Assembly: GCA_026396715.1 (NCBI GenBank)
Contig: JAPLWH010000006.1
Coordinates: 42,850 to 106,849, forward strand
Source of the DNA: Candidatus Kaiserbacteria bacterium
Lineage (GTDB): Bacteria; Patescibacteriota; Minisyncoccia; Phycocordibacterales; Phycocordibacteraceae
Reading direction: 5' to 3'
DNA length: 64,000 nt
Part shown: positions 13,177 to 63,116 of the stretch, piece by piece
How positions within the stretch are numbered: the stretch's first letter is position 1
Layout: every line of letters starts with the position of its first letter
Program-made: the position numbers and the translations under genes
Notes under the pieces: model-generated
What the model was told of the DNA's origin: nothing
Databases searched by the model: none
The model's input: only the letters and a program-made list of their open reading frames with translations

Positions 13177-13304
13177 CCCGTTAGAAGCCGGCCACGATTA
13201 CGCGGCTTGCTCTGTGAGCGCACGACAGATGTATTTCGTATGTGTTCATGCTTCGTCTATTATTCTACTACACAGTGCGTACAGTCTCTAACAGGATTCA
13301 CTAC

Positions 13305-13595
13305 TTATTTTCCACCGATGCCCTGGATCGGGGCGAACGGATCGATACGACCGACTGATTCGGGAGAAATCTGCGTCGTGAGATCGACCAACGAATTAAA
13401 TCGTGCATCCGACAAAATACCGGTATTAAACGAGGTAGGAAGTCTGAGGATGAGTGCTCGGAATCGCACTTGCGCAGGATTCTCTGTCGTATTCGCGGTC
13501 AAAGGTAGCTCGTTCCCGGTATCGGTAAAGAAGTACCAATACGCGCCGGCCGCAAGAATGAGTGCGATAGTGATGAGTGTGATGTTTTGTTTCAT
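13305..13595 (-). CDS. Small membrane protein in pilus operon (possible PilP-like)
   Basis: 96 aa; N-terminal TM (ITLITIALILAAGAYWYFF); position downstream of PilO-like gene. Confidence 0.35.
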   Translation of the reverse strand: MKQNITLITIALILAAGAYWYFFTDTGNELPLTANTTENPAQVRFRALILRLPTSFNTGILSDARFNSLVDLTTQISPESVGRIDPFAPIQGIGGK

Positions 13596-13621
13596 AGGTC
13601 AAAAAATAGGACGTTCGAACG

Positions 13622-14188
13622 TTATCGGAGCCAGAAGAGGCGCAGCTTCATCTGATACGTATAGACACTCGTGTCGGACCCTTTTACGACGATATCCTGA
13701 ACGTCGAGAATACGCTGACTCTTCTCTATTCCAGTCAAGAACGTTTGCAGTGCTGCATACGTACCGACCGCGGAGAGCGAGAGGTCGATCGAACCAACCG
13801 GATTTGCATGTCCGATCGGCACTGCGCCAGACGCGAGAGCGCTTGCCGATTCCGCAGTAATATTCGTCGTAACGTCGATATTCGAAAGAGAGAGGCCTGA
13901 ACGCGACGCAAGCGCCGTAAGATCAAGGATAAGACCGACGTTATCGACCGAATCGGGCAAGAAGACGTTCAACCGAGCAAGACTTGCAGAATCGATAGTA
14001 TTAAGCGCGGACGCGAGTGTGTTCTGTTGTACCGCGTATGAATTCGCCGCAGCGAGCGCCTGATCGTTTGCGATAATAGCAGCTTTAGTCTCGGCTATCG
14101 TACCGGACCAGGCCGGCTGCACATAGGCGAAAAAGATGCCGAGAGCAACGAGGAAGGCGGTAAGCGGTAAGATGCGGTTACTTATCAT
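13622..14188 (-). CDS. PilO-like type IV pilus inner-membrane component
   Basis: 188 aa; single N-terminal TM, coiled-coil then periplasmic domain; operon context between PilN-like and PilB. Confidence 0.5.
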   Translation of the reverse strand: MISNRILPLTAFLVALGIFFAYVQPAWSGTIAETKAAIIANDQALAAANSYAVQQNTLASALNTIDSASLARLNVFLPDSVDNVGLILDLTALASRSGLSLSNIDVTTNITAESASALASGAVPIGHANPVGSIDLSLSAVGTYAALQTFLTGIEKSQRILDVQDIVVKGSDTSVYTYQMKLRLFWLR

Positions 14189-14835
14189 AATGGTGGCATG
14201 GTCGTAGATTCTTCAGGCACACTTGGTGTAAAAGCCTCCGATGAAAAAGCGATGAGTTTTGTATCGAGAGTTGCCGTAAGCGTAAAAGAAACCGAACCGT
14301 CTTTCGAATTTACCGCGATGCCTGAAAAGATAGCGTCCTTTATGCGGCCATCGGCGGCGAATGCAGTAGAAGCGGCAGCGAGCGCATTGAAGCTCTTTGC
14401 AATACCCGAGCCGTCGAGTTTTGCTCCCCCGAGCTCATTGAGTGTGAGATGCATCGAGGTAAAACGGACGGCTGAAGGCAGCAATGTCTCGATGAGCGAG
14501 AAGAAGTGTGAAAATGCGTCATGATTTGCAAGAAGGTCGGTACCTGAATTAAGGCGATCGCGCACCCGAATGAAATTCTCGACGGTTGCCGGATCAATCG
14601 CCGCTTCAGCCTTCATAAGCGCGACGTCCCGGGCGGCCTGACTACTCGCGAGAATGCGACCATAAAAAAATACTCCGATTGCAAGAAGCAACATGACCCC
14701 CAGCATCATGTACCCGAGAGAACCGAAGATGACGGAAAAATCGACGCGGAACCTGCGCGTGACCTCACCCATCGAGTGAGGAACAAATGATGTTGGTATC
14801 GTTGGGGGGAGCATTTCGTTTTTAGTATACGACAC
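14185..14835 (-). CDS. PilN-like type IV pilus inner-membrane component
   Basis: 216 aa; cytoplasmic N-terminus, one TM (YMMLGVMLLLAIGVFFYG), periplasmic remainder; 4-nt overlap with PilO-like. Confidence 0.5.
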   Translation of the reverse strand: MSYTKNEMLPPTIPTSFVPHSMGEVTRRFRVDFSVIFGSLGYMMLGVMLLLAIGVFFYGRILASSQAARDVALMKAEAAIDPATVENFIRVRDRLNSGTDLLANHDAFSHFFSLIETLLPSAVRFTSMHLTLNELGGAKLDGSGIAKSFNALAAASTAFAADGRIKDAIFSGIAVNSKDGSVSFTLTATLDTKLIAFSSEAFTPSVPEESTTMPPL

Positions 14836-14873
14836 TTATGCAAGCCTTGTGCACGGCATCTGTGCAAAACAAA

Positions 14874-15968
14874 CTATAGCTCATCAAGTTTCCGTAACGC
14901 GAGACCGACCGCGACCGCAAACTCGGGACCGATCTCCTCAAGGACCGGACGCATGAACGCCGGAGCTTCAGTTTTCCTAAAAGGATCTGCAACGTGTACA
15001 TCGATCGAGAAAAGGCGTTTCGCATACTCATCAAGCTCCTTCGTAACGCCGCCACCGCCAGTAAAGATGATTGAGGTGATCGATTTCTTGTGTGCTGTCT
15101 CATACTGTATGAGGACACGTCGCACTTCAGAAAAGATGCGCGAAAAGACGATTTCGGGAGCATGGGCGCCACCGTCTCCGAGACCCTCCTTCTTCTTCAG
15201 CTCTTCAGCAGCAGTAATAGAAATGCTGCCGGAAATCGCGATGGCGCGCGTAATATCCTGACTGCCTATAGCGATCGCGTGCGACAGCGCCACGACCCCA
15301 TGCTCGATGACGTAGACTTTTGTGGACGCAGCGCCGACATCAATTACCATGACCGGCTTTACCGGATCATCGACCACGGCACGGATGGTACTGAAGATCT
15401 CAATCTCGTAAAAACTCGCCGAAAGTCCCGCACCCACAACAACATTCTGAAGCATCGTCAGTTCATCATTATGGACTGCGACCAAGAGCACCTCGATACT
15501 CCCCTTCCGGGGTTCCTCTTGCGAATCCTCTGCGCCAAATTGGGCTTGATCCGCCGCAGGTACGACGAACCAGTCGAGCTGCACCTCGCTTATCGGCACA
15601 GGAATATATTTGCGCGCCTCGAGTTCAATGACCGTTTTCTGTTCTTGCGGGTCAGCGCGGTAGGGCAACTCGACGAGCGTGAGCAGCGAGCGAGCGAACG
15701 GTATCGATACGCCGCAGCTTGTCGTCGTTACTTTCGCCTCACGCAAGAGATCTTTGAGAGACTCGATAATCTGCTCGGAGGAAAGATTTGTCGCCTGTCC
15801 GGCATCGGCACCACCATATTGACCGAGCGAAAGCTCGCCGTAGGTCTCAAGAATCGCCTGTCCGTGTTCCTTGCGCAGCTGCACAATCTTTAAGGACGAT
15901 GAGCCGAAGTCGACGCCGAGTACGCTCTGTTCTTTCTTCTTCGAAAAGAATGATTCGAGGAATGACAT
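14874..15968 (-). CDS. pilM: Type IV pilus assembly protein PilM (actin-like ATPase)
   Basis: Start at MSFLESFFSKKKEQSVLGVDFGSSSLKIV; FtsA/actin-like fold motifs (DIGAASTKV); ORF-track N-terminal extension rejected. Confidence 0.8.
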   Translation of the reverse strand: MSFLESFFSKKKEQSVLGVDFGSSSLKIVQLRKEHGQAILETYGELSLGQYGGADAGQATNLSSEQIIESLKDLLREAKVTTTSCGVSIPFARSLLTLVELPYRADPQEQKTVIELEARKYIPVPISEVQLDWFVVPAADQAQFGAEDSQEEPRKGSIEVLLVAVHNDELTMLQNVVVGAGLSASFYEIEIFSTIRAVVDDPVKPVMVIDVGAASTKVYVIEHGVVALSHAIAIGSQDITRAIAISGSISITAAEELKKKEGLGDGGAHAPEIVFSRIFSEVRRVLIQYETAHKKSITSIIFTGGGGVTKELDEYAKRLFSIDVHVADPFRKTEAPAFMRPVLEEIGPEFAVAVGLALRKLDEL

Positions 15969-15982
15969 GCGATAATAGTACC

Positions 15983-16600
15983 ATGATGCCGCTACGGCAC
16001 TGGCTTGATTTCCTCTTTCCTCCTCGCGAGGATGAACGAACGCTGCGAGACATTTCCACCGACGATTTCCTCGCACTCGTAACGCCGCGGCTCGTACCCA
16101 TCACGCGACCAGAAACAGTCAGACTCTTCCCTTTCAATAACGCTTCCGTGCGCGCGGCGGTTCATGAGGCGAAATACCATGGTAGTGAACGCGCTTTTGC
16201 ACTCCTTACCGCTGCACTCAACGACTACCTGTGCGATGCTGATGATGGATTTACGAAACCCATCATCGTGCCGATACCGCTCGGGAAAGGTCGGTACCAG
16301 GAACGCGGATTCAATCAGGCAGAAGAGGTTGCGCGTCGCGTCGCGAACGAGCTCGGCATCGCGGTCGATTCCGCACTTCTCATACGCACGCGTGAGACCG
16401 CTTCACAAGTCTCGCTTCCCCGCTCAAAACGGGAAGAAAACATGCGCGGCGCGTTCAGGGCAACGCGCCGCGCCAATCCCGCGTACCTATATATAGTCAT
16501 CGACGATGTCCTCACCACCGGCGCCACCCTCCAAGCCGCCATCGACGCCTTACGGGAAGCGGGCGCCGAGCACATCCTCCCACTCGCCCTCGCCCATTAA
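15983..16600 (+). CDS. comFC: ComF family competence protein (phosphoribosyltransferase domain, ComFC-like)
   Basis: Start at MMPLRHWLDFLFPPRE; C-terminal PRTase motif YIVIDDVLTTGATL; divergent from pilM with 14 nt between start codons. Confidence 0.75.
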   Translation: MMPLRHWLDFLFPPREDERTLRDISTDDFLALVTPRLVPITRPETVRLFPFNNASVRAAVHEAKYHGSERAFALLTAALNDYLCDADDGFTKPIIVPIPLGKGRYQERGFNQAEEVARRVANELGIAVDSALLIRTRETASQVSLPRSKREENMRGAFRATRRANPAYLYIVIDDVLTTGATLQAAIDALREAGAEHILPLALAH

Positions 16601-16605
16601 GTTTC

Positions 16606-16630
16606 AACCGCCCAGAAATTCTGGGCGGTT
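16606..16630. terminator. Bidirectional hairpin terminator between convergent comFC and hypothetical gene
   Basis: aaccgcccagaa/ttctgggcggtt inverted repeat. Confidence 0.6.
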
Positions 16631-16640
16631 GTCTGCAAGA

Positions 16641-16949
16641 TCAAGAAAAGCAAGTCTGATTATGCGTCATCAATTCCTCAAGTGTGTACCACCCGGCAAA
16701 ACTTAAACACATCTGTATAGCGGAAAGATGGTTACCGGTCTTGCGCTGTTTCCCCGAAAGTTTCGCATATTCTTTCACCCCGTCACAAAGGAAGTGTGCG
16801 TGCGCGAGCCTTTCCTTCTTACTCAATGAGGCAAACGTGCGTTTCGGATCCATCCGAACTTTCGAAATGCCTTCTTTGCGCAGGCGTTCCTCGTACATCT
16901 CAATAAGAGCGGTAATCCTCTCTTTGGGCGTCGACTCCTTTTCGGCCAT
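16641..16949 (-). CDS. Hypothetical protein
   Basis: 102-aa ORF with plausible Lys/Glu-rich sequence; no recognisable motif. Confidence 0.35.
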   Translation of the reverse strand: MAEKESTPKERITALIEMYEERLRKEGISKVRMDPKRTFASLSKKERLAHAHFLCDGVKEYAKLSGKQRKTGNHLSAIQMCLSFAGWYTLEELMTHNQTCFS

Positions 16950-17070
16950 TACGGCCTCCTTTCATAAAAGGGTTTGCGTCTGCCGAGACCCTACCATGCC
17001 CGCGTACACAAACAAAATAGGCGTCCAGAACTCGCTCTCTTTCGCTAAATTTGGTACTGTGGCGGAATAC

Positions 17071-17161
17071 GGAGGGGTCGCATAGAGGCCTAGTGCGGCG
17101 GGTTGCTAACTCGCTATACGAGTAAAATCGTATCGAGGGTTCGAATCCCTCCCCCTCCGCA
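17071..17161 (+). tRNA. tRNA-Ser (anticodon GCU), long variable arm
   Basis: Acceptor GGAGGGG/CCCCTCC, anticodon stem GCGGG/CTCGC with loop TTGCTAA, long variable arm, T-arm GAGGGTTCGAATCCCTC. Confidence 0.8.
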
Positions 17162-17170
17162 AAATAACAA

Positions 17171-17192
17171 GCCGAGAGCATTAGCTCTCGGC
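17171..17192 (+). terminator. Hairpin immediately downstream of tRNA-Ser
   Basis: gccgagagc atta gctctcggc perfect 9-bp stem. Confidence 0.5.
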
Positions 17193-17205
17193 GACTATAT
17201 TTTGC

Positions 17206-17352
17206 GAGAATGGGGAGGGATTCGAAGAGACGGAGCGGGGTACCCGTTCAGCAGAACGGGTCGCGAGTCGCGGACACGACCAAAAGCGAGCGACGGCGAG
17301 CTTTTGAGTTGCGGACGAAAAGCGTACTCGCGGTCCCTCCCTTCTCTTCGAG
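17206..17352. repeat. tRNA-Ser 3'-end derived inverted/direct repeat segment
   Basis: 17213-17227 ggggagggattcgaa is the exact reverse complement of tRNA 17140-17154 ttcgaatccctcccc; tccctccc and ttcgaa pieces recur at 17337-17352. Confidence 0.5.
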
Positions 17353-25709: not shown

Positions 25710-25755
25710 TTAAATCAGAGGTAATTCCTGGGTTCTAACTCAAGGAGGTGCTCTG

Positions 25756-31418: not shown

Positions 31419-32087
31419 TCATTTCGCTTTCGGCCAACGGAGGGCGGAGGGCGGCCAGAGCTTTGTGAGGGGGTGCGCCAGGCAGTTATGCGGACGCGCG
31501 GAGCACACGTACCGGCCGTAAAGCACGAGGCCGTTATTCACATATTTCCAGTCTTTTTTAGGGATGAGTGCTTCGAGGTCTTTCGATATTTTCTTGAGAT
31601 CATTCTGGTCAGTGAGGTCGAGACGCTTCGCAAAGCGCTTCACGTGCGTATCGGTTGCAATGCCCTCCCAGATGCCGTAGAGGTCGCCGAGAATGACGTG
31701 CGCCGTCTTGTAACCCACTCCTGGAAGCGCGACGAGCTCTGACTCCGTACGCGGCACGGCCCCCTTGTGCCGCGTTTGTATTTCTTTGGCCGCACCGATG
31801 ATCGCTTTCGCTTTATTACGGAAGAATGTCACGGAAGAGATTTCTTTCGTAAAAACTGCCGCATCCGCTTTCGCAAAATCTTTTGGCGTCTTGTATTTCT
31901 TGAAGAGCGTCGCCGTCAGCTTATTTACCGCTTTGTCCGTACACTGCGCCGAAAGGATGACCGCAACGACAAATTGAAATGGTGTCGTGTGCACGAGCTC
32001 GCTTGCTGGCGTCGGATACGCTTTTTTCAGATACGCGACAATCTTCTTTGCTCGAAGTACGCGCTCGGTCTGTTTCGCCGGAGTCAT
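31419..32087 (-). CDS. nth: Endonuclease III (Nth)
   Basis: 222 aa; HhH LPGVGYKTAHVILG, catalytic K/D spacing; partial Fe-S Cys region. Confidence 0.85.
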   Translation of the reverse strand: MTPAKQTERVLRAKKIVAYLKKAYPTPASELVHTTPFQFVVAVILSAQCTDKAVNKLTATLFKKYKTPKDFAKADAAVFTKEISSVTFFRNKAKAIIGAAKEIQTRHKGAVPRTESELVALPGVGYKTAHVILGDLYGIWEGIATDTHVKRFAKRLDLTDQNDLKKISKDLEALIPKKDWKYVNNGLVLYGRYVCSARPHNCLAHPLTKLWPPSALRWPKAK

Positions 32088-32557
32088 TGCGCAAGAGTTT
32101 TTAGGTCCGCGATAACTGACGCCGCATGCGTTTTAGGCTTCACTTTTTCATACACCTTCGCGATCTCCCCTTCTGGATTGATGAGGAAGGAGGTACGGCT
32201 GATACCCATGTATGTTTTCCCCATGAACTTTTTCTCGCCAAAAACGCCATACTGTCCGACGACTTCTTTGTACTCATCGGCAAGCAGTGTAAACGGCAGT
32301 TCATACGCGCTCGCGAATTTCTTATGACTCGCGACGCTGTCGGTCGAAACACCAAGTACGACTACTCCTATCGCAGCAAAATCCTTGAATTGGTCGCGGA
32401 TGGTGCAGGCCTCAATCGTGCACCCCGGCGTATCATCTTTCGGATAGAAATAGAGCAACACCCACTTCCCCTGATAGTCGGAAAGCGTATGCGTCTTCCC
32501 CTCCTGATCAGGAAGCGTAAAGTCAGGTGCGCGCGTACCTATCGTTGGTAGTTCCAT
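32084..32557 (-). CDS. bcp: Peroxiredoxin Bcp (thiol peroxidase, 1-Cys/atypical 2-Cys)
   Basis: 157 aa; peroxidatic Cys motif DDTPGCTIEAC. Confidence 0.92.
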   Translation of the reverse strand: MELPTIGTRAPDFTLPDQEGKTHTLSDYQGKWVLLYFYPKDDTPGCTIEACTIRDQFKDFAAIGVVVLGVSTDSVASHKKFASAYELPFTLLADEYKEVVGQYGVFGEKKFMGKTYMGISRTSFLINPEGEIAKVYEKVKPKTHAASVIADLKTLAQ

Positions 32558-32672
32558 CCCGTTAGAAATAGGACGCGGACATGCGGTGCACGACCACGAA
32601 GTCTATTTGATTAGAATTGATAAAATCGACCTCCCAAAACTTCTGGATTTCGCGTCCGCGATTTCTAACGGG
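32558..32672. repeat. Imperfect inverted repeat (cccgttagaaat ... atttctaacggg) flanking AT-rich 88-nt core
   Basis: 32558-32570 vs 32661-32672 perfect 12-bp arms, GC-rich extensions partly complementary. Confidence 0.5.
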
Positions 32673-32686
32673 ATCCATCAACAAAA

Positions 32687-37826: not shown

Positions 37827-40604
37827 ATGCTCACTTGGAATGAGATGCGTGATAGGGCGACCAAATTCGCCCGCGCATGGAGAGACGAGACGCGCGAGAT
37901 GGGAGAATACCAGACCTTTTGGAACGAATTCTTCGACATATTCGGCATAAAGCGCCGTTCTGTCGCTATTTATCAACAACAGGTGGAAAAGCTCGGTGGA
38001 GGACGCGGATTCATCGATCTCTTCCAGCCAGGGAAACTTATCGCCGAACATAAGTCCGCTGGGAAAGATCTCGATGAAGCATTCATGCAGGCGATCGAAT
38101 ACTCTGCAGCTCTTCCCGAAGACATACGCCCCCGCTATATCATCATCACTGATTACGCGCACATGCGCCTCTGTGACCTCGAAGGCGAAAACGGAGAGAC
38201 GGAAAAATATGAGTTTCCCCTCTCGGACCTTCCGAAGCATATTCGGCACTTCGCATTCATTCCCGGCTATGAGGTGCGCAAATACCGTGAGCAGGATCCA
38301 GTGAACCGCAAGGCGGTGCGCGTCGTGGTCAATCTGTATCAGACGCTCGCAAAAAGTAATTACCCGCGGGAACATCTTGGGCACTTGCTCGTACGGCTCG
38401 TCTTCTGTTATTTCGCAGACGACGCCGGCATCTTCCCGCCCGGCGAGCCATTCCGCTATTACCTGGCACTCGGGAGCAGTGAAGACGGCAACGATTTCGG
38501 CAGCCGTCTCGATGCCGTCTTTTCAACATTGAACACACCCGAAGAAAGGCGGCAAACAACGCTCGATGAGCGGCTCGCTGAATTACCCTATGTAAATGGC
38601 GGACTCTTCGCCGATTACCTCCCTGTCGTCTTCTTCAACCGCGAGATGCGCCGTGCGGTGCTTGATGCTTGCGAGTTCAATTGGAGCGCAGTTTCCCCGG
38701 AGATTTTCGGCTCAATGTTCCAGTTCGTACTCGAAACCGACTCGGGCGACACTCGCCATGACTTCGGCGCCCACTACACTTCAGAGAAGAACATCCTGAA
38801 AGTCATCGACGGTCTCTTTATGGATGAGCTGCGTACCGAACTCTCCACAGCTGGCAAAAACACGGCAAAGCTGAATGCGCTCTGGGAGAAAATCGCTCGC
38901 ATTACCCTCCTCGACCCAGCCTGCGGTTGTGGCAACTTCCTTGTCGTCGCCTATAGAGAGCTGCGCCGTCTTGAGCTCGAAATATTGAAGCGTCTCCATC
39001 CGCAACACGCTGAGCAAGTAGAAGGAGCGGGTCAAACGGCGCTTCCAATAGACATCCGCCATCTTTCAAAACTTTCTGTCGAGCGGATGTACGGCATCGA
39101 GCTTCTCCACTTCCCCGCAGAAATAGCGAAGCTCTCGCTCTGGCTTACCGACCATCTTGCAAACATAGAGCTGGGCGATTATTTCGGTGTACCATTTGTG
39201 AAGCTTCCCTTGACCGAATCCCCGCACATCAAAGAAGGCAATGCGCTCACGCTCGACTGGGAATCTATAGTCCCGAAAGAAAATCTCTCCTATATCCTCG
39301 GCAATCCGCCCTTTATAGGATCGCGCGTCATGGACGCGAACCAAAAAGCGGACATGCTTGCCGTCTTCGGAAAAATCAGAGAACTCGGCTTTCTTGATTA
39401 TGTAACTGCTTGGTATAAGAAAGCCGCCACGTATATCCAAAATACGCCGATTAAAGTCGGCTTCGTATCAACAAACTCCATCACGCAAGGCGAACAGGTC
39501 GGCATCTTGTGGGAGCAATTGCATGCGCTCAATATTCACATCCATTTCGCGCATCGTACCTTCAAGTGGAGTAACGAGGCACCGGGGAAGGCCGCCGTGT
39601 ATTGCGTCATCATCGGTTTCGCGGCGTTCCCTTCAGAGCGACCTCGACTTTTTGATTACGAAGATGTTCGCGGCGAAGCTCACGAAGTAAGTGTAAAAGA
39701 AATAAATCCCTATCTAGTCGCGGCACCAGAAAATGTCATTGTACGCAACCGCCACAAACCAATTTCAGAGGTACCCGAGATGTCATTCGGCAATATGCCG
39801 CGGGATGCCGGCGCATTTATTTTGAGCGAAGAGGAACGTGCAAATCTTCTTGCGCAGGAACCAGCAGCAGAAAAGTTTGTTCGCGATTATATGGGCGCGC
39901 AAGAATTTTTGCATAGTGAGAAACGCTACTGTCTCTGGCTTGTGGACGCAAAACCCGAAGAGCTTCGCGCACTCCCACTAGTCATGCGCCGTATTGAAAA
40001 CGTTCGCGCATTTCGCGAGTTAAGTGCCGCGGCTTCAACACGCAAAATGGCAGAAACGCCATCTCTCTTCGCGCAACGCACACAACCAAAAAGTGATTAC
40101 GTACTTATTCCGAGTACCTCGTCTGAAAATCGTCGATATGTTCCGATGGGCTTTATGCCCAAGGAAGTAATAGCCAGTAATAGTTGTCACACTATACCAA
40201 GTGCAACTCTCTATCACTTCGGCGTTCTTGAAAGCGAGCTCCATATGACCTGGATGCGTGCTATCTGCGGACGACTTGAAAGTCGCTATCGTTATTCTAA
40301 AGACATTGTCTACAACAATTTCCCGTGGCTGGAAAATCCTTCAACGGAAGTGAAGAAGGCGGTCGAAGATGCGGCACAGGCAATCCTCAATGTGCGTGCT
40401 GCGCACCCCGGCGCAACGCTTGCCGACCTCTACGACCCGCTCACGATGCCCACCGATCTCCTCGCGGCGCACCACGCGCTCGACCGCGCCGTCGACCGCG
40501 CCTACGACATTACCAAGCCCTTCCCATCCGAATCCGCCCGTCTCGAATTTCTATTTGAGAAATACCAAAAACTTCTGCAACGAACGCCTACAAAGAAAAT
40601 CTGA
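37827..40604 (+). CDS. MmeI-family Type IIL/IIG restriction-modification enzyme (endonuclease + N6-adenine methyltransferase + TRD in one polypeptide)
   Basis: 925 aa; N-terminus MLTWNEMRDRATKFARAWRDE...FWNEFFDIFGI matches MmeI nuclease domain; MTase motif I LDPACGCGNFLV, motif IV GNPPFIG; FVSTNSITQGEQV; C-terminal SRYRYS...FPW and LADLYDP motifs. Confidence 0.88.
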   Translation: MLTWNEMRDRATKFARAWRDETREMGEYQTFWNEFFDIFGIKRRSVAIYQQQVEKLGGGRGFIDLFQPGKLIAEHKSAGKDLDEAFMQAIEYSAALPEDIRPRYIIITDYAHMRLCDLEGENGETEKYEFPLSDLPKHIRHFAFIPGYEVRKYREQDPVNRKAVRVVVNLYQTLAKSNYPREHLGHLLVRLVFCYFADDAGIFPPGEPFRYYLALGSSEDGNDFGSRLDAVFSTLNTPEERRQTTLDERLAELPYVNGGLFADYLPVVFFNREMRRAVLDACEFNWSAVSPEIFGSMFQFVLETDSGDTRHDFGAHYTSEKNILKVIDGLFMDELRTELSTAGKNTAKLNALWEKIARITLLDPACGCGNFLVVAYRELRRLELEILKRLHPQHAEQVEGAGQTALPIDIRHLSKLSVERMYGIELLHFPAEIAKLSLWLTDHLANIELGDYFGVPFVKLPLTESPHIKEGNALTLDWESIVPKENLSYILGNPPFIGSRVMDANQKADMLAVFGKIRELGFLDYVTAWYKKAATYIQNTPIKVGFVSTNSITQGEQVGILWEQLHALNIHIHFAHRTFKWSNEAPGKAAVYCVIIGFAAFPSERPRLFDYEDVRGEAHEVSVKEINPYLVAAPENVIVRNRHKPISEVPEMSFGNMPRDAGAFILSEEERANLLAQEPAAEKFVRDYMGAQEFLHSEKRYCLWLVDAKPEELRALPLVMRRIENVRAFRELSAAASTRKMAETPSLFAQRTQPKSDYVLIPSTSSENRRYVPMGFMPKEVIASNSCHTIPSATLYHFGVLESELHMTWMRAICGRLESRYRYSKDIVYNNFPWLENPSTEVKKAVEDAAQAILNVRAAHPGATLADLYDPLTMPTDLLAAHHALDRAVDRAYDITKPFPSESARLEFLFEKYQKLLQRTPTKKI

Positions 40605-40606
40605 TT

Positions 40607-40834
40607 TCAACCGCGAGGCGGAAAATCATCGTTTCCATACGAGTTTCGCCATCCGATTCTGCCATTCTCATTCTGCACGAATAGTTCGGCCTCTTTATTG
40701 ATAGCGACTTCGCGTGCTCGTACAACCGCTTCCGCTTTCGTGTCATATATACCTGCAGCCCGTTCTGCTCCCGCGGAATGTACCTTCCAATCCTCGCCTG
40801 ATGGACTAACCCATACTTGCTTTTGCTTGCTCAT
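40607..40834 (-). CDS. DUF2188-family protein
   Basis: 75 aa; WKV...TKAEA...A..A....EL.V...G.I....SYGNDDFPPRG pattern. Confidence 0.6.
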   Translation of the reverse strand: MSKQKQVWVSPSGEDWKVHSAGAERAAGIYDTKAEAVVRAREVAINKEAELFVQNENGRIGWRNSYGNDDFPPRG

Positions 40835-40920
40835 GTTAATTCTGCATTACTTGATAATAAAACTCTTGTCTCTTCCTTCTTCGGTAACCGAATTGAGTCC
40901 ATTTTATTCCTCAAATATCC

Positions 40921-40973
40921 ACTGTCAATATCCCCGACATATATTTGACAGTAATTCTGACACTGCTACCATA
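40921..40973 (+). promoter_or_regulatory. 8-bp inverted repeat (actgtcaa-N16-ttgacagt) overlapping -35 TTGACA of putative promoter for HTH-Panacea gene
   Basis: IR 40921-40928 / 40945-40952; TTGACA 40945-40950, 16-nt spacer, TACCAT 40967-40972, ATG at 40979. Confidence 0.45.
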
Positions 40974-40978
40974 GACCT

Positions 40979-41761
40979 ATGACCACCGCACTTCTAAAAA
41001 AACTTCGGGAGGAACAAGCATTGTCACAAGATTCAATAGCGAGAGAGCTTGGTATTTCGCGCCCGACATATATCGCGATTGAACAAGGGAAACGCAAGCT
41101 TACCCTCTCTGAAGCGGAGTGTTTGGCACAGATGTTTAGTATCTCACTCGACGAACTTGTCTACGGGAAACGTCGCAAGGTGGATGTCGTCTTATCGAAA
41201 ACACCGGTACCAAAGAAGGTAGCTGCGGAAAATGGTATACGCATCAGCGTCCCAGCCGAGAATAAAGAGAAGTTCAAACAGGTACTGCTCTATATTCTTG
41301 AAAAAATCGGTAGCAAGCCGAATATCGGCATGACCGCCCTCTATAAAATCCTCTATTTCATCGACTTCGACTACTACGAGAAATTCGAAGAACAACTCAT
41401 GGGTGCTGTGTACATCCGCAATCATTATGGTCCGACTCCTGTTGCCTTCACAAAAATCGTGAAAGAAATGGAACGCGAGGGTACTCTTGCAGCAATCGAA
41501 ACAAAGTATTTTCAACATGAACAGAAGAAATTCCTTCCTCGCACGAAGCCAGAATTAAAACAACTTTCTGGTCAAGAAATTGCACATATCGATGAAACGC
41601 TAGCGCGGCTTGGCGACAAGAACGCTCGTGAACTTACCGAGCTGTCTCATCGCGATATCCCATGGATGTGCGTCAAAGATGGCGAGCCGCTTGAATATGA
41701 GTCCGTCTTTTATCGTTCAGATGAGACTTCACAACGTGATTATGGACCGGATCCGTTATGA
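40979..41761 (+). CDS. XRE-family HTH + Panacea (DUF4065) domain protein, antitoxin-like (PanA/SocA-like)
   Basis: N-terminal HTH (LSQDSIARELGISRPTYIAIEQGKRKLTLSEAECLAQMF); central ALYKILYFIDFDYYEKFEEQLMGAVYIRNHYGPTP matches DUF4065. Confidence 0.7.
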   Translation: MTTALLKKLREEQALSQDSIARELGISRPTYIAIEQGKRKLTLSEAECLAQMFSISLDELVYGKRRKVDVVLSKTPVPKKVAAENGIRISVPAENKEKFKQVLLYILEKIGSKPNIGMTALYKILYFIDFDYYEKFEEQLMGAVYIRNHYGPTPVAFTKIVKEMEREGTLAAIETKYFQHEQKKFLPRTKPELKQLSGQEIAHIDETLARLGDKNARELTELSHRDIPWMCVKDGEPLEYESVFYRSDETSQRDYGPDPL

Positions 41762-42125
41762 GGAAACGCTAGGGTTCGCTCATGACATCAAGAAGCTCCT
41801 TAAACGCTTCCGCTCACTCCGAGCAGATATAGAAGTAGCAAAACGCTACGCGTTAGAACCTTTCCATGCCGAGCCGCGCATAGACACGAATGCTATCGAA
41901 GAAATTTCGGGGTCATGTACGGAAGAAGTGCGGGCATGCAAAATAAAAAAATTCACATGCCGGGCAATCAAGGGGCGAGGTGTTATGAGCGGAATCCGCA
42001 TTACCTATGCGTATCACATCCGACAGAAGCGTGTGGTGTTCATCGAGATTTATTTCAAGGGCGACAAAGAGAATGAGGATCGCGCGCGGATTAAAGAATA
42101 TCTCGAGAGTATACTAGACGCATGA
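41742..42125 (+). CDS. RelE/ParE-superfamily (HigB/Gp49-like) toxin candidate
   Basis: 127 aa from MDRIRYEETLGF...; C-terminal GIRITYAYHIRQKRVVFIEIYFKGDKENEDRARIKEY resembles RelE/HigB core; 20-nt overlap with upstream gene, ATGA overlap with downstream. Confidence 0.45.
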   Translation: MDRIRYEETLGFAHDIKKLLKRFRSLRADIEVAKRYALEPFHAEPRIDTNAIEEISGSCTEEVRACKIKKFTCRAIKGRGVMSGIRITYAYHIRQKRVVFIEIYFKGDKENEDRARIKEYLESILDA

Positions 42126-43095: not shown

Positions 43096-43665
43096 GTGGC
43101 TACTGAACGACTTCGCATAAATAACGAGATCCGCGCGCAAGAATTGCGCGTTATTGGTGCCCAAGGGGAGAATTTGGGAGTTCTTTCGCTTGACGCGGCG
43201 CTCGCGGCCGCAAAAACCGCCGGACGCGACCTCATCGAAATCTCACCTTCGGCCCTGCCGCCCGTTGCGAAAATCATGGATTATGGTAAATTCGAATACG
43301 AGCGTAGCAAGAAGGAAAAGGTAGCAAAAGCCAAGGTCAAAGTGTCTGAGACCAAGGAGGTCCAGATCAAGGTGGGCACCGGCGACCACGATATGGGGCT
43401 CAAGGCGAGAAAGGCCGCTGAGTGGCTCGCCGAGGGTCACCGAGTACGTGCCGAGCTCTTCCTCAAAGGCCGCTACAAGGGCATGGGAGAGGAGTTCTTG
43501 AAGGAACGCCTCGTGCGGTTCCTCAAGCTCATCCCGTATGCCTACAAAGTCTCTGAGCCCGTCGCGCGGAGCCCCAAAGGCTTTGCTGGGGTCATCGAAC
43601 GAGACCTCATAGCCCAAGCGAAACGTGAGAAAGAACAGAAACCACAAAATGAAAAACCCAGTTAG
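43096..43665 (+). CDS. infC: Translation initiation factor IF-3
   Basis: INNEIRAQELRVIG...DLIEISPSALPPVAKIMDYGKFEYE. Confidence 0.9.
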   Translation: MATERLRINNEIRAQELRVIGAQGENLGVLSLDAALAAAKTAGRDLIEISPSALPPVAKIMDYGKFEYERSKKEKVAKAKVKVSETKEVQIKVGTGDHDMGLKARKAAEWLAEGHRVRAELFLKGRYKGMGEEFLKERLVRFLKLIPYAYKVSEPVARSPKGFAGVIERDLIAQAKREKEQKPQNEKPS

Positions 43666-43695
43666 AAAGTCTCTCGGATTCGACTTCTAACGGGG
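43658..43695 (+). promoter_or_regulatory. Intercistronic hairpin infC–rpmI carrying CCCaGTTAGAA/TTCTAACGGGG arms
   Basis: cccagttagaaagtc tctcggatt cgacttctaacgggg; overlaps infC stop. Confidence 0.45.
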
Positions 43696-43709
43696 CAAGC
43701 AAACAAAAC

Positions 43710-43904
43710 ATGAAAACAAACAAATCTTACTCAAAACGAATACGAGTTACCCGCAACGGGAAGCTCATGGCGCGCGCAAAAGGCCAGAACCATTTCAATG
43801 CGAAGGCGAGCGGTTCCGAGCGCAACGGCAAGCGCCGTCCAGTCGCGATCAAGCTGACGATGAAGGTCCGCCGCCGTTTCCTTCCGGGCACGGGCGCTAA
43901 GTAA
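43710..43904 (+). CDS. rpmI: 50S ribosomal protein L35
   Basis: 64 aa; MKTNKSYSKRIRVTRNGKL. Confidence 0.9.
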   Translation: MKTNKSYSKRIRVTRNGKLMARAKGQNHFNAKASGSERNGKRRPVAIKLTMKVRRRFLPGTGAK

Positions 43905-43953
43905 TTAATCTTTCTGTAATCATTTTCGTATGACAAGAATCAAAGGAGGAGTA

Positions 43954-44277
43954 ATGGCGCAGAAACGCCGCAAGAACATTCTCGAACGCGCCAAGGGCTA
44001 CCGCGGCATCCGCTCGAAGAAGGAACGCTACGCGCACGAAGCGCTCATGCGCGCTGGCCGCTACGCGTTCGCCCACCGCCGCGACAAAAAGACCGACTTC
44101 CGCCAGGTCTGGATCGTTCGGCTGAACGCCGCTGTCCGCGAGACCGGCCACAAGTCCTACTCCACATTCATCGCGAAGCTCAAGAAGTCCGGTTTTGCCC
44201 TCGACCGCAAGGTCCTCGCTCAATTCGCCTCCGACCATCCGGAAATTTTCGCCCGCATCAGCAAGCAAGTCGTCTAA
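43954..44277 (+). CDS. rplT: 50S ribosomal protein L20
   Basis: Start MAQKRRKNILERAKGYRG preceded by aaaGGAGGag SD; ORF-track upstream start lacks SD. Confidence 0.88.
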   Translation: MAQKRRKNILERAKGYRGIRSKKERYAHEALMRAGRYAFAHRRDKKTDFRQVWIVRLNAAVRETGHKSYSTFIAKLKKSGFALDRKVLAQFASDHPEIFARISKQVV

Positions 44278-57227: not shown

Positions 57228-57647
57228 TTATTTCGAAGCTGGTGCTGCCCCAAGAGTCAGCTTAACCGCGCTCTTTCTGCGGCGAATAAGCGACGCGCGT
57301 CCGAAGGCGCGCGGCATGTACTTCTTCAAGATGCCGGCGCTCTCAACGATGATCGACTGCACGCGGAGCGTGTCGACATCTTCGCCTGATACCTTCGCAT
57401 TCGCGATGGCGCTCTGGAGGAGCTTCATGATTGGTTCCGCAGCGCGCTTCGGGAGGAACTCGAGTGCGACGAGCGCGTCCTGTACCTTCTTGCCTTTTAT
57501 GAGCTCAGTCACGAGACGGACCTTGCGCGGCGTCTGATTATGACTCTTGAGGGTTGCGTAGGCCACCCCATTAGATATGGCAACGGCACTTGCCTTGCTC
57601 ATGCGGGAGTCCGCTGCTTTCTTTGTTGTAAGTTTGGTTGTGGACAT
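57228..57647 (-). CDS. rplV: 50S ribosomal protein L22
   Basis: 139 aa; L22 core with N-terminal extension. Confidence 0.88.
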   Translation of the reverse strand: MSTTKLTTKKAADSRMSKASAVAISNGVAYATLKSHNQTPRKVRLVTELIKGKKVQDALVALEFLPKRAAEPIMKLLQSAIANAKVSGEDVDTLRVQSIIVESAGILKKYMPRAFGRASLIRRRKSAVKLTLGAAPASK

Positions 57648-57670
57648 AAAAATCTAACGGGGCGCGTATC

Positions 57671-58024
57671 TTATTTCTTTGCAGAAGGAGCTGCGGCAGC
57701 GGGAGCCTTCGCGGCCTTAGCGGAAGCAATCTCAGCCTCCTGCTTCTTGGTCTCCATCTCCTTCTGCATCTTGCCTCCGTGACGGAGGAACTTCTTGGTC
57801 GGCGAGAATTCACCGAGGCGATGCCCTACCATATCCTCAGAGACGAGGACCGGGAGGTGCTGCTTGCCATTGTGAACACCCAAGGTAAAACCAATCATTT
57901 CGGGGCTAATCTGGCTGCGGCGCGCCCACGTGTTTATCACTCCGGAGGTAGCCGGTTTTGCATTCATGACCTTCTTCAGGAGTTTGATGTCCACGAAGGG
58001 TCCTTTTTTGAGTGAGCGTGCCAT
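57671..58024 (-). CDS. rpsS: 30S ribosomal protein S19 with Lys/Ala-rich C-terminal tail
   Basis: Start [19 protein letters not shown]; ...[10 protein letters not shown]. Confidence 0.9.
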
Positions 58025-58060
58025 AAGCAATGAAAAGCCCGCTATGCGGGATAGCTGAAA
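58025..58060 (-). promoter_or_regulatory. Short hairpin + U-run immediately upstream of rpsS start (leader attenuator-like)
   Basis: minus strand: agctatCCCGCatagcGGGCttttcattgcttATG. Confidence 0.35.
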
Positions 58061-58135
58061 GATACAGGAAGCAGTCTGCAGAGTCAACAGTACCGCTCCA
58101 AATGACCCTCATAAATACTAGTCCGTTTCAGAACG

Positions 58136-58264: not shown

Positions 58265-58272
58265 ATATTCGC

Positions 58273-59121: not shown

Positions 59122-59130
59122 ACGGAATAA

Positions 59131-59496: not shown

Positions 59497-59501
59497 AGTA
59501 T

Positions 59502-60272
59502 TTATTTAGATTTCGCCTGCCCTGAGCCTGCTCGCGGTGAGCTTGTCGAACCCGTCGAACGGACGCGGGCACTGAGCGCCTTGAACGCCGCCTCCGGCTT
59601 CTCAATGATGAGATACTTGTGCGCGAGTACGTCGACCGGATTAATGTTGCGCAGCTCTTCCGTCATGATATTCCCGAAATTCTTGAAGCTCTTAATCGCC
59701 GCCGCGTCGTAGGCGGAAAGTGCGACGAGCGCGGCATTCTTCTTCTTTGCGACGAGCTTCTCGGCCTTTGCCCCCTTTGCGAGCGCGATGATAGATGCTT
59801 TTGCGAGCGACGTCTTCGGCGCTGCGAAAGAGAAGGTGTCAACCAAGATGATCTCGCCGTCCTTTGCCTTCTTCGAGAGGACCGAGAGGAGAGCACCGAT
59901 GCGCATCTTGCGGTTGATCTTCTCACTGTAGTCGCGCTCGGAGCGCGGACCGAAGGTCACGCCGCCGTGGCGCCAGATCGGAGAACGGTTGGAGCTGTGA
60001 CGCGCCTGGCCAGTACCCTTCTGCTTCCATGGCTTCTTGCCGCCGCCCGACACTTCGGCACGGTCTTTCGTATTGGCGCGGTTCTGACGTGCATTTGCTT
60101 GCATCGCGGTCGTAACCTGGTGCACAAGGTCACTCCTCCATGGTGCGCCGAAGATATCTTCGGGAAGCGTCATCATCGAAACCTCTTTTCCTTCCATAGA
60201 GAAGACTGGCACCTCGATTGGTACGTAAGCAACTTTCTTTTTCATGATCTTTGCAGTAGTCATAGTATTCAA
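59502..60272 (-). CDS. rplD: 50S ribosomal protein L4 with C-terminal extension
   Basis: 256 aa; GGGKKPWKQKGTGQAR motif. Confidence 0.9.
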   Translation of the reverse strand: MNTMTTAKIMKKKVAYVPIEVPVFSMEGKEVSMMTLPEDIFGAPWRSDLVHQVTTAMQANARQNRANTKDRAEVSGGGKKPWKQKGTGQARHSSNRSPIWRHGGVTFGPRSERDYSEKINRKMRIGALLSVLSKKAKDGEIILVDTFSFAAPKTSLAKASIIALAKGAKAEKLVAKKKNAALVALSAYDAAAIKSFKNFGNIMTEELRNINPVDVLAHKYLIIEKPEAAFKALSARVRSTGSTSSPRAGSGQAKSK

Positions 60273-60273
60273 A

Positions 60274-60888
60274 TTATGCGGAGACTACTTCAAGAAGCGT
60301 ACCGCGGCGACCAGGCACCGCACCACTGACGATGATCCTCCCTGCGGCAACATCGACCACGAGTACCTTGAGGTTCGTGACGGTTATGCGATCCGTACCC
60401 ATACGGCCGGCCATGCGCATACCTTTTGCGACGCGACCGCCCGCGCGACCGCCGCCGCCGCCAATCGATCCCGGAGAGCGCTCCGTGTGCTTCTGACCGT
60501 GCGTGCGCGGGCCGCCATGGAAGCCATGGCGCTTCACCACACCAGCGAAGCCCTTACCTTTCGAGAGGCCCGAAACCTGCACCGTGTCGCCAACCGAGAA
60601 GACCGACGCGTCAATCGTTGCACCGACCTCGGCAGCAGTATCGGTGCGGAACTCGCGGATAGCCTTGTAACCCTTACCTTTCGTGTGTCCGAGTACCGGC
60701 TTGCTGATGTTCTTCGTCCTGCGTACGCCCTGTCCGACCTGCACCGCCGCATAGCCGTCCTTGCCCGCAGCCGTCTTTATCTGAGTGACGGTAACCGGGT
60801 CAGCCACGAGGATAGTTCCCGCGCGCGCAACGCCGTCTTCCCCGAAGATACGGGTCATACCTTCTTTTGTAGCGAGGATGAATTTCAT
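60274..60888 (-). CDS. rplC: 50S ribosomal protein L3
   Basis: Start MKFILATKEGMTRIF; upstream extension rejected. Confidence 0.9.
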   Translation of the reverse strand: MKFILATKEGMTRIFGEDGVARAGTILVADPVTVTQIKTAAGKDGYAAVQVGQGVRRTKNISKPVLGHTKGKGYKAIREFRTDTAAEVGATIDASVFSVGDTVQVSGLSKGKGFAGVVKRHGFHGGPRTHGQKHTERSPGSIGGGGGRAGGRVAKGMRMAGRMGTDRITVTNLKVLVVDVAAGRIIVSGAVPGRRGTLLEVVSA

Positions 60889-61027
60889 TTTTTTAAAAGC
60901 AAATCGCGCAACAGCAAATCGCGTTGCGCGAGATGCCATAGGTCCTCCGTGAGATGCCGCGAAGTGGCTATCTCTCTAGGGTACGTAGCTTTAAGGGCAC
61001 TCTACACGAGCCGTCCAAAAGATGCAA

Positions 61028-61065
61028 GAAAAGCGAAACCGCCCCGTAAGGGGCGGTTTCGCTTT
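61028..61065. terminator. Perfect 17-bp hairpin between rpsJ and rplC with A/T-run flanks
   Basis: aaaagcgaaaccgcccc gtaa ggggcggtttcgctttt. Confidence 0.7.
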
Positions 61066-61104
61066 TCTTGGCAGTCTTTGTTAAAGCCTTCGACTTCGCT
61101 CAGG

Positions 61105-61512
61105 CTAAACCATCTTTACGTCAATCGTCACGCCGGAAGGGAGATTGAGGTTCGTGAGGGCCTCGATTACCTTCGGCGAGGGATTCAAGATGTCGACGAG
61201 GCGCTTATGAATGCGCATTTCGAACTGCTCGCGTGCATCTTTGTAGACGAACGTCGAGCGGTTCACTGTCCAGCGCTTGATCTCGGTAGGAAGCGGAACC
61301 GGACCGACGACGGTCGCATCGAAGCGAGCGGCGGTGTCCATGATCTGCTTCACGGAGAGATCGAGAATTTTGTGCTCATAGGCGCGGATGCGGATGCGGA
61401 GTTTGTGTTCCGTTGGAACGGCCGCGGTCGCTTTCTTCGTGACGCGCTTGCCCTCCGTAGCTTTAGCGGAGGAGGGTTTCGCTTTCGGTTTTGCTGCTGT
61501 CGCTGGTGCCAT
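61105..61512 (-). CDS. rpsJ: 30S ribosomal protein S10 with Ala/Lys-rich N-terminal extension
   Basis: S10 core KLRIRIRAYEHKILD. Confidence 0.9.
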   Translation of the reverse strand: MAPATAAKPKAKPSSAKATEGKRVTKKATAAVPTEHKLRIRIRAYEHKILDLSVKQIMDTAARFDATVVGPVPLPTEIKRWTVNRSTFVYKDAREQFEMRIHKRLVDILNPSPKVIEALTNLNLPSGVTIDVKMV

Positions 61513-61538
61513 ATGAGTAGGGATTCTCGGATGAGAGC

Positions 61539-62738
61539 TTACGCCGTAATCTTTGTTACGACGCCAGCGCCCACCGTCTTGCCGCCTTCGCGGATAGCGA
61601 AGCGCTGCTGTTCCTCAAGCGCGACCGGAGCAACGAGCTTTACCATGAAGGTAACCGTGTCTCCCGGCATGACCATCTCCTTACCCTCCGCGAGCGTTAC
61701 CTCGCCCGTCACGTCCGTCGTGCGGATGTAGAACTGCGGCTTGTATCCGGAAAAGAATGGCGTGTGACGGCCTCCTTCGTCCTTGGAGAGGATGTAGACC
61801 TCGGCGTTGAAGTCCGTATGCGGCGTGACCGATCCGCTCTTCGCGAGGACCTGTCCGCGGTGCACATCTTCCTTCTTCGTACCGCGGAGCAAGATGCCGG
61901 CATTGTCGCCCGCCATACCCTCAGTAAGCTGCTTGTTAAACATTTCGATGCCGGTAACGGTCGTCTTCGCCGTCGGCTTGATACCGACGATTTCGACTTC
62001 CTCGCCAACCTTCACGACACCGCGCTCGATACGGCCGGTAACGACGGTACCGCGACCTTCGATCGAGAAGATGTCTTCGATCGGCATGAGGAACGGCTTG
62101 TTGACCTCGCGCTCTGGCTGGTCGAAGTACGTGTCCATCGTGTCGATGAGGCTCTTGACCTTCTGTGCCCATTCGTCGCTGACTTCCTTCGACTCAAGCG
62201 CCTTGAGGCCCGAACCGCGGATAATCGGCGTCGATGCACCGTCGTAGCCCTGCTTCGTGAGAAGCTCGCGGATTTCCTCTTCGACGAGGTCGATGAGGTC
62301 TGCCTCGGCTACCATGTCCACCTTGTTCAAGAAGACGATGAGCTTCTTAAGACCCACCTGCTTCGCAAGGAGGATGTGCTCGCGCGTCTGCGGCATCACG
62401 CCGTCAGTCGCAGCAACCACGAGGACTGCACCGTCCATTTGGGCGGCACCCGTGATCATGTTCTTGATGTAGTCAGCGTGTCCTGGCGCATCGATGTGCG
62501 CGTAGTGACGCTTTGGGGACTCGTACTCCGAGTGGTGGAGCGCGATAGTGATACCACGCGCCTTCTCTTCCGGTGCGCTGTCAATTTTGTCGACGCCTTC
62601 GACGCGAGCTGAGTAGCCCTCGCCAGTGAGCATCGAGAGCACATGCAGGATACCTGCGGTGAGCGTCGTCTTTCCATGGTCCACGTGGCCGATGGTGCCG
62701 ACATTCATGTGCGGCTTGCTGCGGTTAAATTCTGCCAT
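61539..62738 (-). CDS. tuf: Elongation factor Tu
   Basis: 399 aa; [15 protein letters not shown], NKxD. Confidence 0.97.
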
Positions 62739-62794
62739 AATTATCGAATTACGTTAGTAAATCACGAATAAAGAGGATTCTTACGAACCTCTTC

Positions 62795-62856
62795 CTGTCA
62801 TCGCTCGCTCGGAAAAGATAATGAGGACATTCTCTTTTCACTTGCTCGCTCGACAG
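62795..62856. repeat. Intergenic repeat element copy B: TCGCTCGCTCGG – imperfect hairpin – TGCTCGCTCGACAG
   Basis: gaaaagataatg agga cattctcttttc with flanking CTCGCTCG direct repeats and ctgtca/cgacag outer inverted ends. Confidence 0.5.
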
Positions 62857-62994
62857 TAATCCGACGCGAGTCGGAACAAACTCTACAGCTTGCCGACTCA
62901 CAAAAAGCAGACAAGCCAAAGAGCGACGCCAAGATGCGTTAAAGGCACTATACGAGAAGCGTCTGTGGAATGCAACCTGCAGCGGGGACAAGGG

Positions 62995-63040
62995 AAAGAA
63001 AACCGCCGCAGCCAGGAGGCTGCGGCGGTTTTCTTTTGTG
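62995..63040. terminator. Bidirectional terminator in fusA–tuf intergenic region
   Basis: gaaaaccgccgcagcc agga ggctgcggcggttttctttt. Confidence 0.75.
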
Positions 63041-63077
63041 AAAAGTTATTTGCGAGACGCGATGATGTCGGCGGCGA

Positions 63078-63116
63078 CCCCATTAGAAACGCTCGCCGAC
63101 TCACGTTCTAACGGGG
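63078..63116. repeat. Hairpin with CCCaTTAGAA / TTCTAACGGGG arms immediately downstream of fusA stop
   Basis: cccattagaaacg ctcgccgactca cgttctaacgggg. Confidence 0.45.

Follow-up and report, generated by a model that had tools for sequence, protein, structure and literature searches.

Seven copies of a short DNA element, six of them clear and one decayed, lie in a 64,000-nucleotide stretch of a Candidatus Kaiserbacteria genome (contig JAPLWH010000006.1, positions 42,850 to 106,849; hereafter the window). These copies are very probably mobile insertion elements, and they are likely to form a miniature, non-coding mobile family with 11-bp inverted ends that duplicates 4 bp of its target. A DDE-type mechanism with a staggered 4-bp cut is about an even bet. 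Insertion, a 4-bp duplication, conserved 11-bp ends, variable interiors, multiple copies and expansion within one lineage make this a non-autonomous element of the MITE kind (short for miniature inverted-repeat transposable element). Even in a Patescibacteria genome as compact as this one, then, a family of selfish elements is expanding.

The shared end is an 11-bp terminal inverted repeat, YCCCGTTAGAA, which is often extended to ...AAAT. The motif CCCGTTAGAA occurs exactly five times in the window, at 13177(+), 32558(+), 32663(-), 43685(-) and 63106(-), against an expectation of 0.05, and five copies were reached in none of 100 dinucleotide-preserving shuffles. Allowing up to one mismatch gives 11 matches where 2.55 are expected, and inverted pairs of arms within 160 nt number six, compared to 0.33 in the shuffles. 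Every exact copy is one arm of such a pair. The initial annotation, made from the letters of the window, had described a recurrent palindromic motif at five or more sites; all of its coordinates are confirmed and the frequency is far from that of chance, with the refinement that the 10-mer alone is not a palindrome and becomes one through its inverted pairing. One proposed site leaves the family, since TTCTAAC at 25733 is a mere 7-mer at chance level, seen eight times in 64 kb (six of them inside elements) where about eight are expected (64,000 x 2 / 4^7).

The copies lie among a type IV pilus cluster that includes pilB (11383-13176, minus strand), the bcp gene (32084-32557, minus strand), the infC-rpmI-rplT genes (43096-44277), the S10/spc ribosomal operon, tuf and the 3' part of fusA. 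Their features are as follows, with target duplications in plus-strand letters.

13176-13296, minus strand: pilB element, 121 nt, with proximal arm TCCCGTTAGAA (13176-13186) and degenerate distal arm CTCTAACAGGA (13286-13296).
13172-13175 and 13297-13300: pilB target duplication TTCA, which is TGAA in gene sense.
32557-32673, minus strand: bcp element, 117 nt, with perfect arms TCCCGTTAGAAAT and ATTTCTAACGGGA.
32553-32556 and 32674-32677: bcp target duplication TCCA, which is TGGA in gene sense.
43657-43695, plus strand: infC-rpmI hairpin, 39 nt, CCCAGTTAGAA ... TTCTAACGGGG, with no clear target duplication.
57566-57666, minus strand: rpsS-rplV insertion, about 100 nt, with arms CCCCGTTAGAT (57662-57652) and ATCTAATGGGG (57576-57566).
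63078-63116, minus strand: fusA hairpin, 39 nt, lying 24 nt 3' of the fusA stop; its minus-strand sequence is CCCCGTTAGAACG ... CGTTTCTAATGGGG, in which one pair is G-U.
11273-11369, minus strand: what is probably a seventh copy, now decayed, lying between the stop of pilB and the start of a response regulator, with right arm TCCTAACGGGG (11283-11273) and degenerate left arm ACTCGGTAAGATAT (11369-11356).

The copies are alike at their ends only, and their interiors are unrelated. Inverted ends of 11-13 bp bound the three long copies (32557/32673, 13176/13296 and 57566/57662) and likewise 124 hairpins from elsewhere. Both hairpins named at the outset, between infC and rpmI and after fusA, are there, each with one imperfect arm, and the inverted-repeat element upstream of bcp is real, with its bounds now set at 32557-32673. 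The pilB copy had been taken for a solitary motif, and its degenerate second arm (13286-13295) makes it a 121-nt element; a 97-nt copy between rpsS and rplV (57566-57662) and the decayed copy at 11273-11369 had been overlooked.

Evidence of insertion comes from empty sites in relatives, whose DNA was obtained via homologues of Bcp, L22 and PilB and whose junctions were compared one by one. In three relatives with 85-88% identity in Bcp (L205, L209 and L212), an upstream TAG is followed by 8 nt and then by ATGGAA, and the window has the 117-nt element and a second TGGA exactly at this point. The empty pilB site, found in L221 and L222, reads TGA-GTA-ATGAATCTT. The TGGA and TGAA that are duplicated at bcp and pilB each occur singly in the empty sites. 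Another relative, L219, shares the pilB element, with both arms intact and the TGAA duplication; because its arms are intact, the insertion must be older than the split between L219 and the window, and the distal arm in the window decayed later. Between rpsS and rplV, L213, L214 and L218 read TAA-CAT-ATGGCCTAC without any insert, and in both L216 and the window about 100 nt separate the A from the TG. The diverged copies shared with L219 and with L216 show that they were inherited once a single insertion had taken place.

Two other junctions fit the same pattern. The spacer between infC and rpmI is 18 nt long in L205, L209 and L211, which also differ in the tail of IF3, and 44 nt long in the window, hairpin included. 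At the site of the decayed copy, just about 12 nt separate the pilB stop from the conserved GTATACTAT...ATGGCCTAC in L219 and L221. About 517 kb of DNA from the closest relatives holds two exact copies of the motif, one of which belongs to a 29-nt element with a CTTG duplication (L130), and from this near-absence it follows that the family expanded specifically in the lineage of the window. Four contigs with an identical bcp come from the same strain and are hence uninformative, and contig look-ups by identical Tuf and RplT proteins returned no record.

The motif does abut the ATG of pilB (CAT at 13174-13176) and of bcp (CAT at 32555-32557), as first noticed. At bcp, pilB and rplV alike, the element lies inserted between bases 1 and 2 of the start codon and restores that codon with its own last base, as ATG at bcp and pilB and as GTG at rplV. 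At bcp, for example, the terminal base of the element is the A of the ATG. The contact between motif and start codon thus arises because the element was inserted at A|TG with a 4-bp duplication, and it is not a conserved translation signal.

It is highly improbable that the motif is a host signal for leader function, processing or translation, that is, an RNA hairpin regulating pilB, bcp, rpmI, rplV and fusA. Such a role would account for a motif that abuts three start codons and one stop codon, and the hairpins are indeed stable as RNA, with predicted folds of -49.6 kcal/mol for the bcp copy (z = -6.1), -22 kcal/mol for the fusA hairpin (z = -4.0) and -14.8 kcal/mol for the infC-rpmI hairpin (z = -2.9). 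The z-scores range from -2.9 to -6.1 in copies other than pilB, whose arm has decayed (z = -1.1), and the fusA copy keeps its G-U pair on the transcribed strand. However, the orthologous junctions of close relatives, with spacers of 3-18 nt, lack the motif, which also removes the conserved leader or processing signal that the initial annotation had offered as one meaning. The flanks carry target duplications, and the same ends are found beside unrelated genes, mostly in non-coding DNA, in other phyla. A scan of the window with Rfam covariance models at the gathering threshold matched a tRNA-Ser alone and no element, the same models run on eight element-rich loci at E <= 1 gave two weak off-target matches, neither on an element, and a promoter and terminator scan of the bcp copy found none.

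Three further candidates were tried and rejected. A translational bypass or hop element, with direct repeats around a hairpin containing TAG, does not hold as a general reading for copies that mostly lack a long open frame on either side. In an integron attC site, the polarity of core and inverse core would be the wrong way round, and the operator of a transcription factor does not agree with half-site spacings that vary from 5 to more than 95 nt.

The repeated hits on start codons would reflect selection together with target preference. Spacers in this genome are 3-8 nt long, so nearly any other insertion position would break a gene, and in so compact a genome perhaps only insertions at gene borders survive. 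Recurrent insertion at A|TGRA would be tolerated in that the A or G with which the element ends re-forms ATG or GTG, and tetramers of the preferred target form YNNR (described below) are present on the opposite strand of ATGAAT and ATGGAA. Secondary effects on translation are plausible, as the AUGs now sit at the foot of strong predicted stems.

The rplV copy may also add to a protein. Together with the native TG, the last G of the element makes a GTG (57566-57564) immediately ahead of the conserved start of L22, (M/V)AYATLK. The annotated rplV ATG (57647-57645) lies in frame within the element, and gene callers therefore give an L22 of 139 aa, compared to 112 aa with the start MAYATLK in the closest homologues (97% identical). 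The element may thereby add 27 N-terminal codons to L22. Over these codons, synonymous and non-synonymous changes between the window and L216 are, by our count, about equal in number, and such near-equal counts are weak evidence that the extension is translated. At the other end of a gene, the infC stop TAG (43663-43665) lies inside the left arm of the infC-rpmI hairpin. The family has remodelled gene borders: it rebuilt three start codons, supplied one stop codon and possibly added 27 residues to L22. In annotation, unusual extensions of N- and C-termini and long "intergenic" gaps trace back to these copies, which can also throw off the calling of start codons.

A side observation concerns the neighbouring rpsS (57671-58087), which encodes an S19 with an Ala/Lys-rich C-terminal extension of about 45 residues. 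The C-terminal part of this extension aligns in L213, L214 and L218, where S19 is called at 75-145 aa. Judged by that alignment, the extension is native to the clade and not caused by the element.

The same ends occur well beyond this genome. A genome collection with one genome per species was scanned for the pattern CCCGTTAGAA-N5-35-TTCTAACGGG, and at least 120 stretches carry hairpins with the same arms. They come from metagenome-assembled genomes of Omnitrophota, many Patescibacteria lineages, Planctomycetota, Nitrospirota/Thermodesulfovibrionia and Desulfobacterota; further groups, including one bin labelled Aenigmatarchaeota, have single matches among the matches listed. Many of the 8-kb loci hold several copies, and most copies elsewhere lie in non-coding stretches beside unrelated genes. 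The initial annotation had suggested a genome-specific, REP-like dispersed palindrome (REP, repetitive extragenic palindromic). A dispersed palindromic repeat of REP or MITE type is what was found, and it is not specific to one genome, being spread over at least five other phyla.

The flanks of 124 perfect hairpins among the matches listed define the target. An exact 4-bp direct repeat at positions -5 to -2 and +2 to +5 flanks 67 of the 124, and any other register gives at most one. The two outermost bases (-1/+1) can pair in 92% of the hairpins, as C:G in about 80% and as T:A in about 12-16%; the window copies carry the minority T:A pair. Flanking 6-mers match at five or more of six positions in 54 elements, compared to 9.7 when flanks are paired at random. 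Since the flanks show both duplication and covariation, the elements found elsewhere are real and not chance matches. The repeat measures 4 bp and not 6, given that positions -6 and +6 agree in only about 40% of the copies. The duplicated tetramer has the consensus YNNR, to which the TGGA and TGAA of the window conform. With reverse complements merged, TTTA/TAAA accounts for 29 cases, TTCA/TGAA for 9, TTGA/TCAA for 7 and CTCG/CGAG for 6, and ten other tetramers make up the rest.

Element lengths run from about 27 to 120 nt. Near-identical elements of 31 nt (loci L065, L119, L101, L052, L063 and L071) and of 38 nt (L007, L018, L027, L061 and L113) are found at separate sites in separate genomes, with the 31-nt one reaching three phyla, and this recurrence means that very small units are themselves mobile. 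Copies with typical 4-bp duplications are also seen in predicted viral contigs (IMG/VR; L223, L226, L229 and L230), in 10 short-hairpin and two long stretches, and viruses could carry the element between phyla. Taken together, the ends shared across phyla and with some viral contigs point to cross-phylum spread among uncultured organisms of groundwater and sediment.

Some copies are found in frame in prepilin-type genes of Planctomycetota and Omnitrophota (L032, L055, L067, L079, L092 and L123), an example of tolerated coding insertion. One such insert reads ...RRGFT|PLE...FLTGFT|LIELLVV. Of five inserted genes tested, four (L032, L055, L079 and L123) have the Pfam N_methyl motif beginning immediately behind the insert; in the fifth, L067, the match is weak (E = 0.0037) and fails the cut-off. 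The duplicated TTTA is that of GGG-TTT-ACC (G-F-T), and the left arm reads T-P-L-E in the pilin frame. Cleavage at the second G|F would presumably remain possible in the longer leader and so make the insertion tolerable. A possible codon set for pilin T-L-L-E, ACC-CTG-TTA-GAA, would lie one base away from the arm; it is hypothetical, constructed and not taken from an observed pilin sequence. In the pilin genes of the window itself (4428-8506) no copy is inserted, and GFTLIE is encoded there by codons other than those of the arm.

From these copies a bolder reading can be drawn, and it is a speculative one. The mobile unit would be the hairpin itself (about 27-38 nt), moved, probably as single-stranded or cruciform DNA, by an enzyme that reads nothing but the conserved base of the stem and cuts its target with a 4-bp stagger. 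It would have reached distant phyla in part because its ends mimic and home into the prepilin leader, which is conserved universally (GGG-TTTA-CC..TTAGAA), and where the duplicated G|FT cleavage site would render it harmless. If true, few known mobile DNAs would be smaller, and these elements would combine a novel mode of safe-harbour targeting with the ability to rebuild start codons.

A related possibility, also doubtful, is that the hairpins move as single-stranded DNA by means of an HUH/Y1-type enzyme, as do REP/REPIN elements with their RAYT proteins and elements derived from IS200/IS605, and are not DDE-type MITEs. The conservation of the stem base alone speaks for it, with loops that vary freely in sequence and in length (5-35 nt and more), as does the recurrence of the 31-38-nt units. 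In the 31-nt and 38-nt sub-families, moreover, the orientation of the loop is fixed relative to the asymmetric, T-rich flank (11 of 11), and in the commonest class a ...TTAC flank abuts the stem, TTAC being the target of IS608. Against it stands the variable 4-bp flank, which is duplicated on both sides and takes the form of at least 14 different tetramers; neither IS200/IS605 nor REP elements are known to make target duplications. The 51-nt family has loops in both orientations (3:2), the ends lack the GTAG or CGTC tag by which REP super-families are defined (PMC3733652), and no Y1 transposase is among the recurrent neighbours in 120 loci.

The fusA copy has a more complex structure than the others. 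A displaced second tail of fusA, comprising the last 10 codons and the stop, lies at 63047-63079 on the minus strand and starts at the foot of the hairpin. It differs from the live tail (63141-63173) at eight positions, all of them synonymous. The hairpin sits between the two tails, with its right arm TTTCTAATGGGG running into the displaced one. Of 80 relatives, 78 lack the hairpin; L166 has the same layout with a diverged hairpin, and L125 has an identical EF-G tail with neither hairpin nor second tail. In L143, L145, L152 and L160, longer duplicated tails bracket cassettes of 0.6-2.2 kb that include HicAB-like pairs. The layout in the window looks like a recombination-mediated integration of DNA that carried a fusA tail.

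As a side observation, the clade has an insertion hot spot at the fusA 3' end, with second or third copies of the last 10-30 codons placed 0.1-2.2 kb downstream. The cassettes hold HicA/HicB-like pairs, a helix-turn-helix (HTH) gene and a 198-aa membrane protein, and the tails differ mostly at synonymous positions, with visible crossover points.

In another explanation, a tyrosine recombinase of the Xer type acts on a true site of the form TTCTAACGGG-(6 bp)-CCCGTTAGAA and the flanking repeats are the crossover core shared by attL and attR. The 10-bp inverted arms around a 6-bp centre (G-TTTA-C) do resemble the layout of dif and lox, and identity of the core would account for covarying flanks and for fixed orientation. 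Copies also tend to adjoin arm-like native sequence, GTTCCTAAT at fusA and CCCTGCTGAA in the infC spacer (the pilin case consists of the constructed codons only), and the fusA 3' end is a place of frequent recombination in relatives. Yet a circle of 33 nt is impossible as duplex DNA, the abutted order of arm, 6 bp and arm was not seen in the loci, where the nearest spacings are 18-23 nt, and the limited agreement at -6/+6 leaves a repeat of 4 bp and not 6. No recombinase gene is linked to the elements, either among neighbours or among ten window open reading frames (ORFs). On balance, this explanation is unlikely.

The reading as a MITE-like family that duplicates 4 bp of its target is itself not free of difficulties, and several observations weigh against it or against the DDE-type mechanism. 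The duplication is not visible at the infC, fusA and rplV copies, and the fusA copy is only partly explained, as no single mechanism can be derived from its structure. Near-identical ends of 10-11 bp across phyla are unusual for MITEs. Identical ends acting through a symmetric mechanism would not lead one to expect the fixed loop orientation of the 31-nt and 38-nt sub-families. At 27-38 nt, a unit in the form of bent duplex DNA is too short to bring its two ends together in a synapse, which argues for recognition of a hairpin or cruciform over classical DDE transposition. A transposase is absent from ten large ORFs of the window (an MmeI-type restriction-modification (RM) enzyme, an enolase, a ligase and others), and the recurrent neighbour proteins of the 120 loci include no transposase, Y1 cluster or recombinase; the largest clusters shared across loci are histidine kinases, ABC ATPases, response regulators and DUF1559 pilin-like proteins. 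A search of 1.4 Mb of loci for an autonomous element, in the form of inverted arm pairs that lie 150-5000 nt apart and have matching duplications, produced no convincing candidate.

For a MITE-like family, mobilisation would occur in trans, by an enzyme that reads the stem base or terminal repeat and cuts the target with a 4-bp stagger, and transposition would be of the cut-and-paste or copy-in kind. The mobilising enzyme could be a transposase that acts on very short hairpin substrates.

The window has other features of interest. Upstream of tuf, at about 62790-62950 on the minus strand, lies a strongly conserved non-coding block, TAACGCATCTTGGCGTCGCTCTTTGGCTTGTCTGC...GAGTTTGTTCCGACTC.CGTCGG, which is common to L125 and visible in L129, L131, L141 and L174 despite differing intergenic surroundings. 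It has no Rfam match and may be an undescribed leader or small RNA. Positions 37827-42121 contain the MmeI-type RM enzyme (925 aa), a gene with HTH and Panacea (SocA-like) antitoxin domains and small ORFs, between RNaseH-like and PLD genes; the latter two are adjacent in L205 and L209, so the region has the look of a defence islet that was inserted. The 3' end of tRNA-Ser(GCT) recurs as a perfect inverted copy of 15 nt (17140-17154 / 17212-17226), 57 nt downstream of that gene, and this copy may be an integration remnant or part of a terminator.

Among known systems, bacterial MITEs such as the Correia elements of Neisseria, RUP, ERIC and MITEAba12 are alike in being short and non-coding, with terminal inverted repeats and a short target duplication. 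They too are multi-copy, vary in presence and absence among relatives and insert at gene borders, where they affect start and stop codons. MITEs measure about 100-300 nt, whereas many copies here measure 27-51 nt; they have a known parent insertion sequence (IS), and no cognate IS is known here. Their ends are confined to one genus, whereas the 10-11-bp ends described here occur in several phyla, with an orientation bias in some sub-families.

REP and REPIN elements are similar in that they are palindromes of 20-40 nt, conserved at the base of the stem and variable in the loop, present in many copies and mostly extragenic. The present elements differ from them in having no tag, in having 4-bp duplications and in lying in frame inside some genes, and no RAYT gene was seen among the neighbours in the 120 loci. 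Elements derived from IS200/IS605 insert 3' of a fixed tetra- or pentanucleotide without duplication, compared to duplicated flanks with many different tetramers here.

Tolerance in frame is shared with the Rickettsia palindromic elements (RPEs), which, as Ogata et al. reportedly described in 2000, are tolerated in frame in protein genes and add peptide segments. Here the corresponding sites are prepilin leaders and possibly the N-terminus of L22 and the C-terminus of IF3. RPEs, likened here by description, are 100-150 bp long and restricted to Rickettsia; the present elements are mostly non-coding, and their coding insertions cluster at the GFT codons of prepilins.

The CCC...GGG ends and the 4-bp T..A duplication recall piggyBac and IS1380, a likeness that serves as a lead and not as a test. 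The ends of piggyBac read CCCTAGAAAG... and its target is TTAA. That tetramer is rare here (one of 67 duplications), with TTTA, TTCA and TTGA dominating, and no such transposase was found. Transposases of IS1380 are the prokaryotic relatives of piggyBac (PMC10140906). In the literature, no paper carrying the sequence was found, nor anything relevant on MITEs in the candidate phyla radiation (CPR)/Patescibacteria. The elements are best described as a new family of the known MITE/REP-like kind, and its very small mobile units, the identity of its ends across phyla and its targeting of prepilin leaders would, if confirmed, make it more unusual than that description implies.

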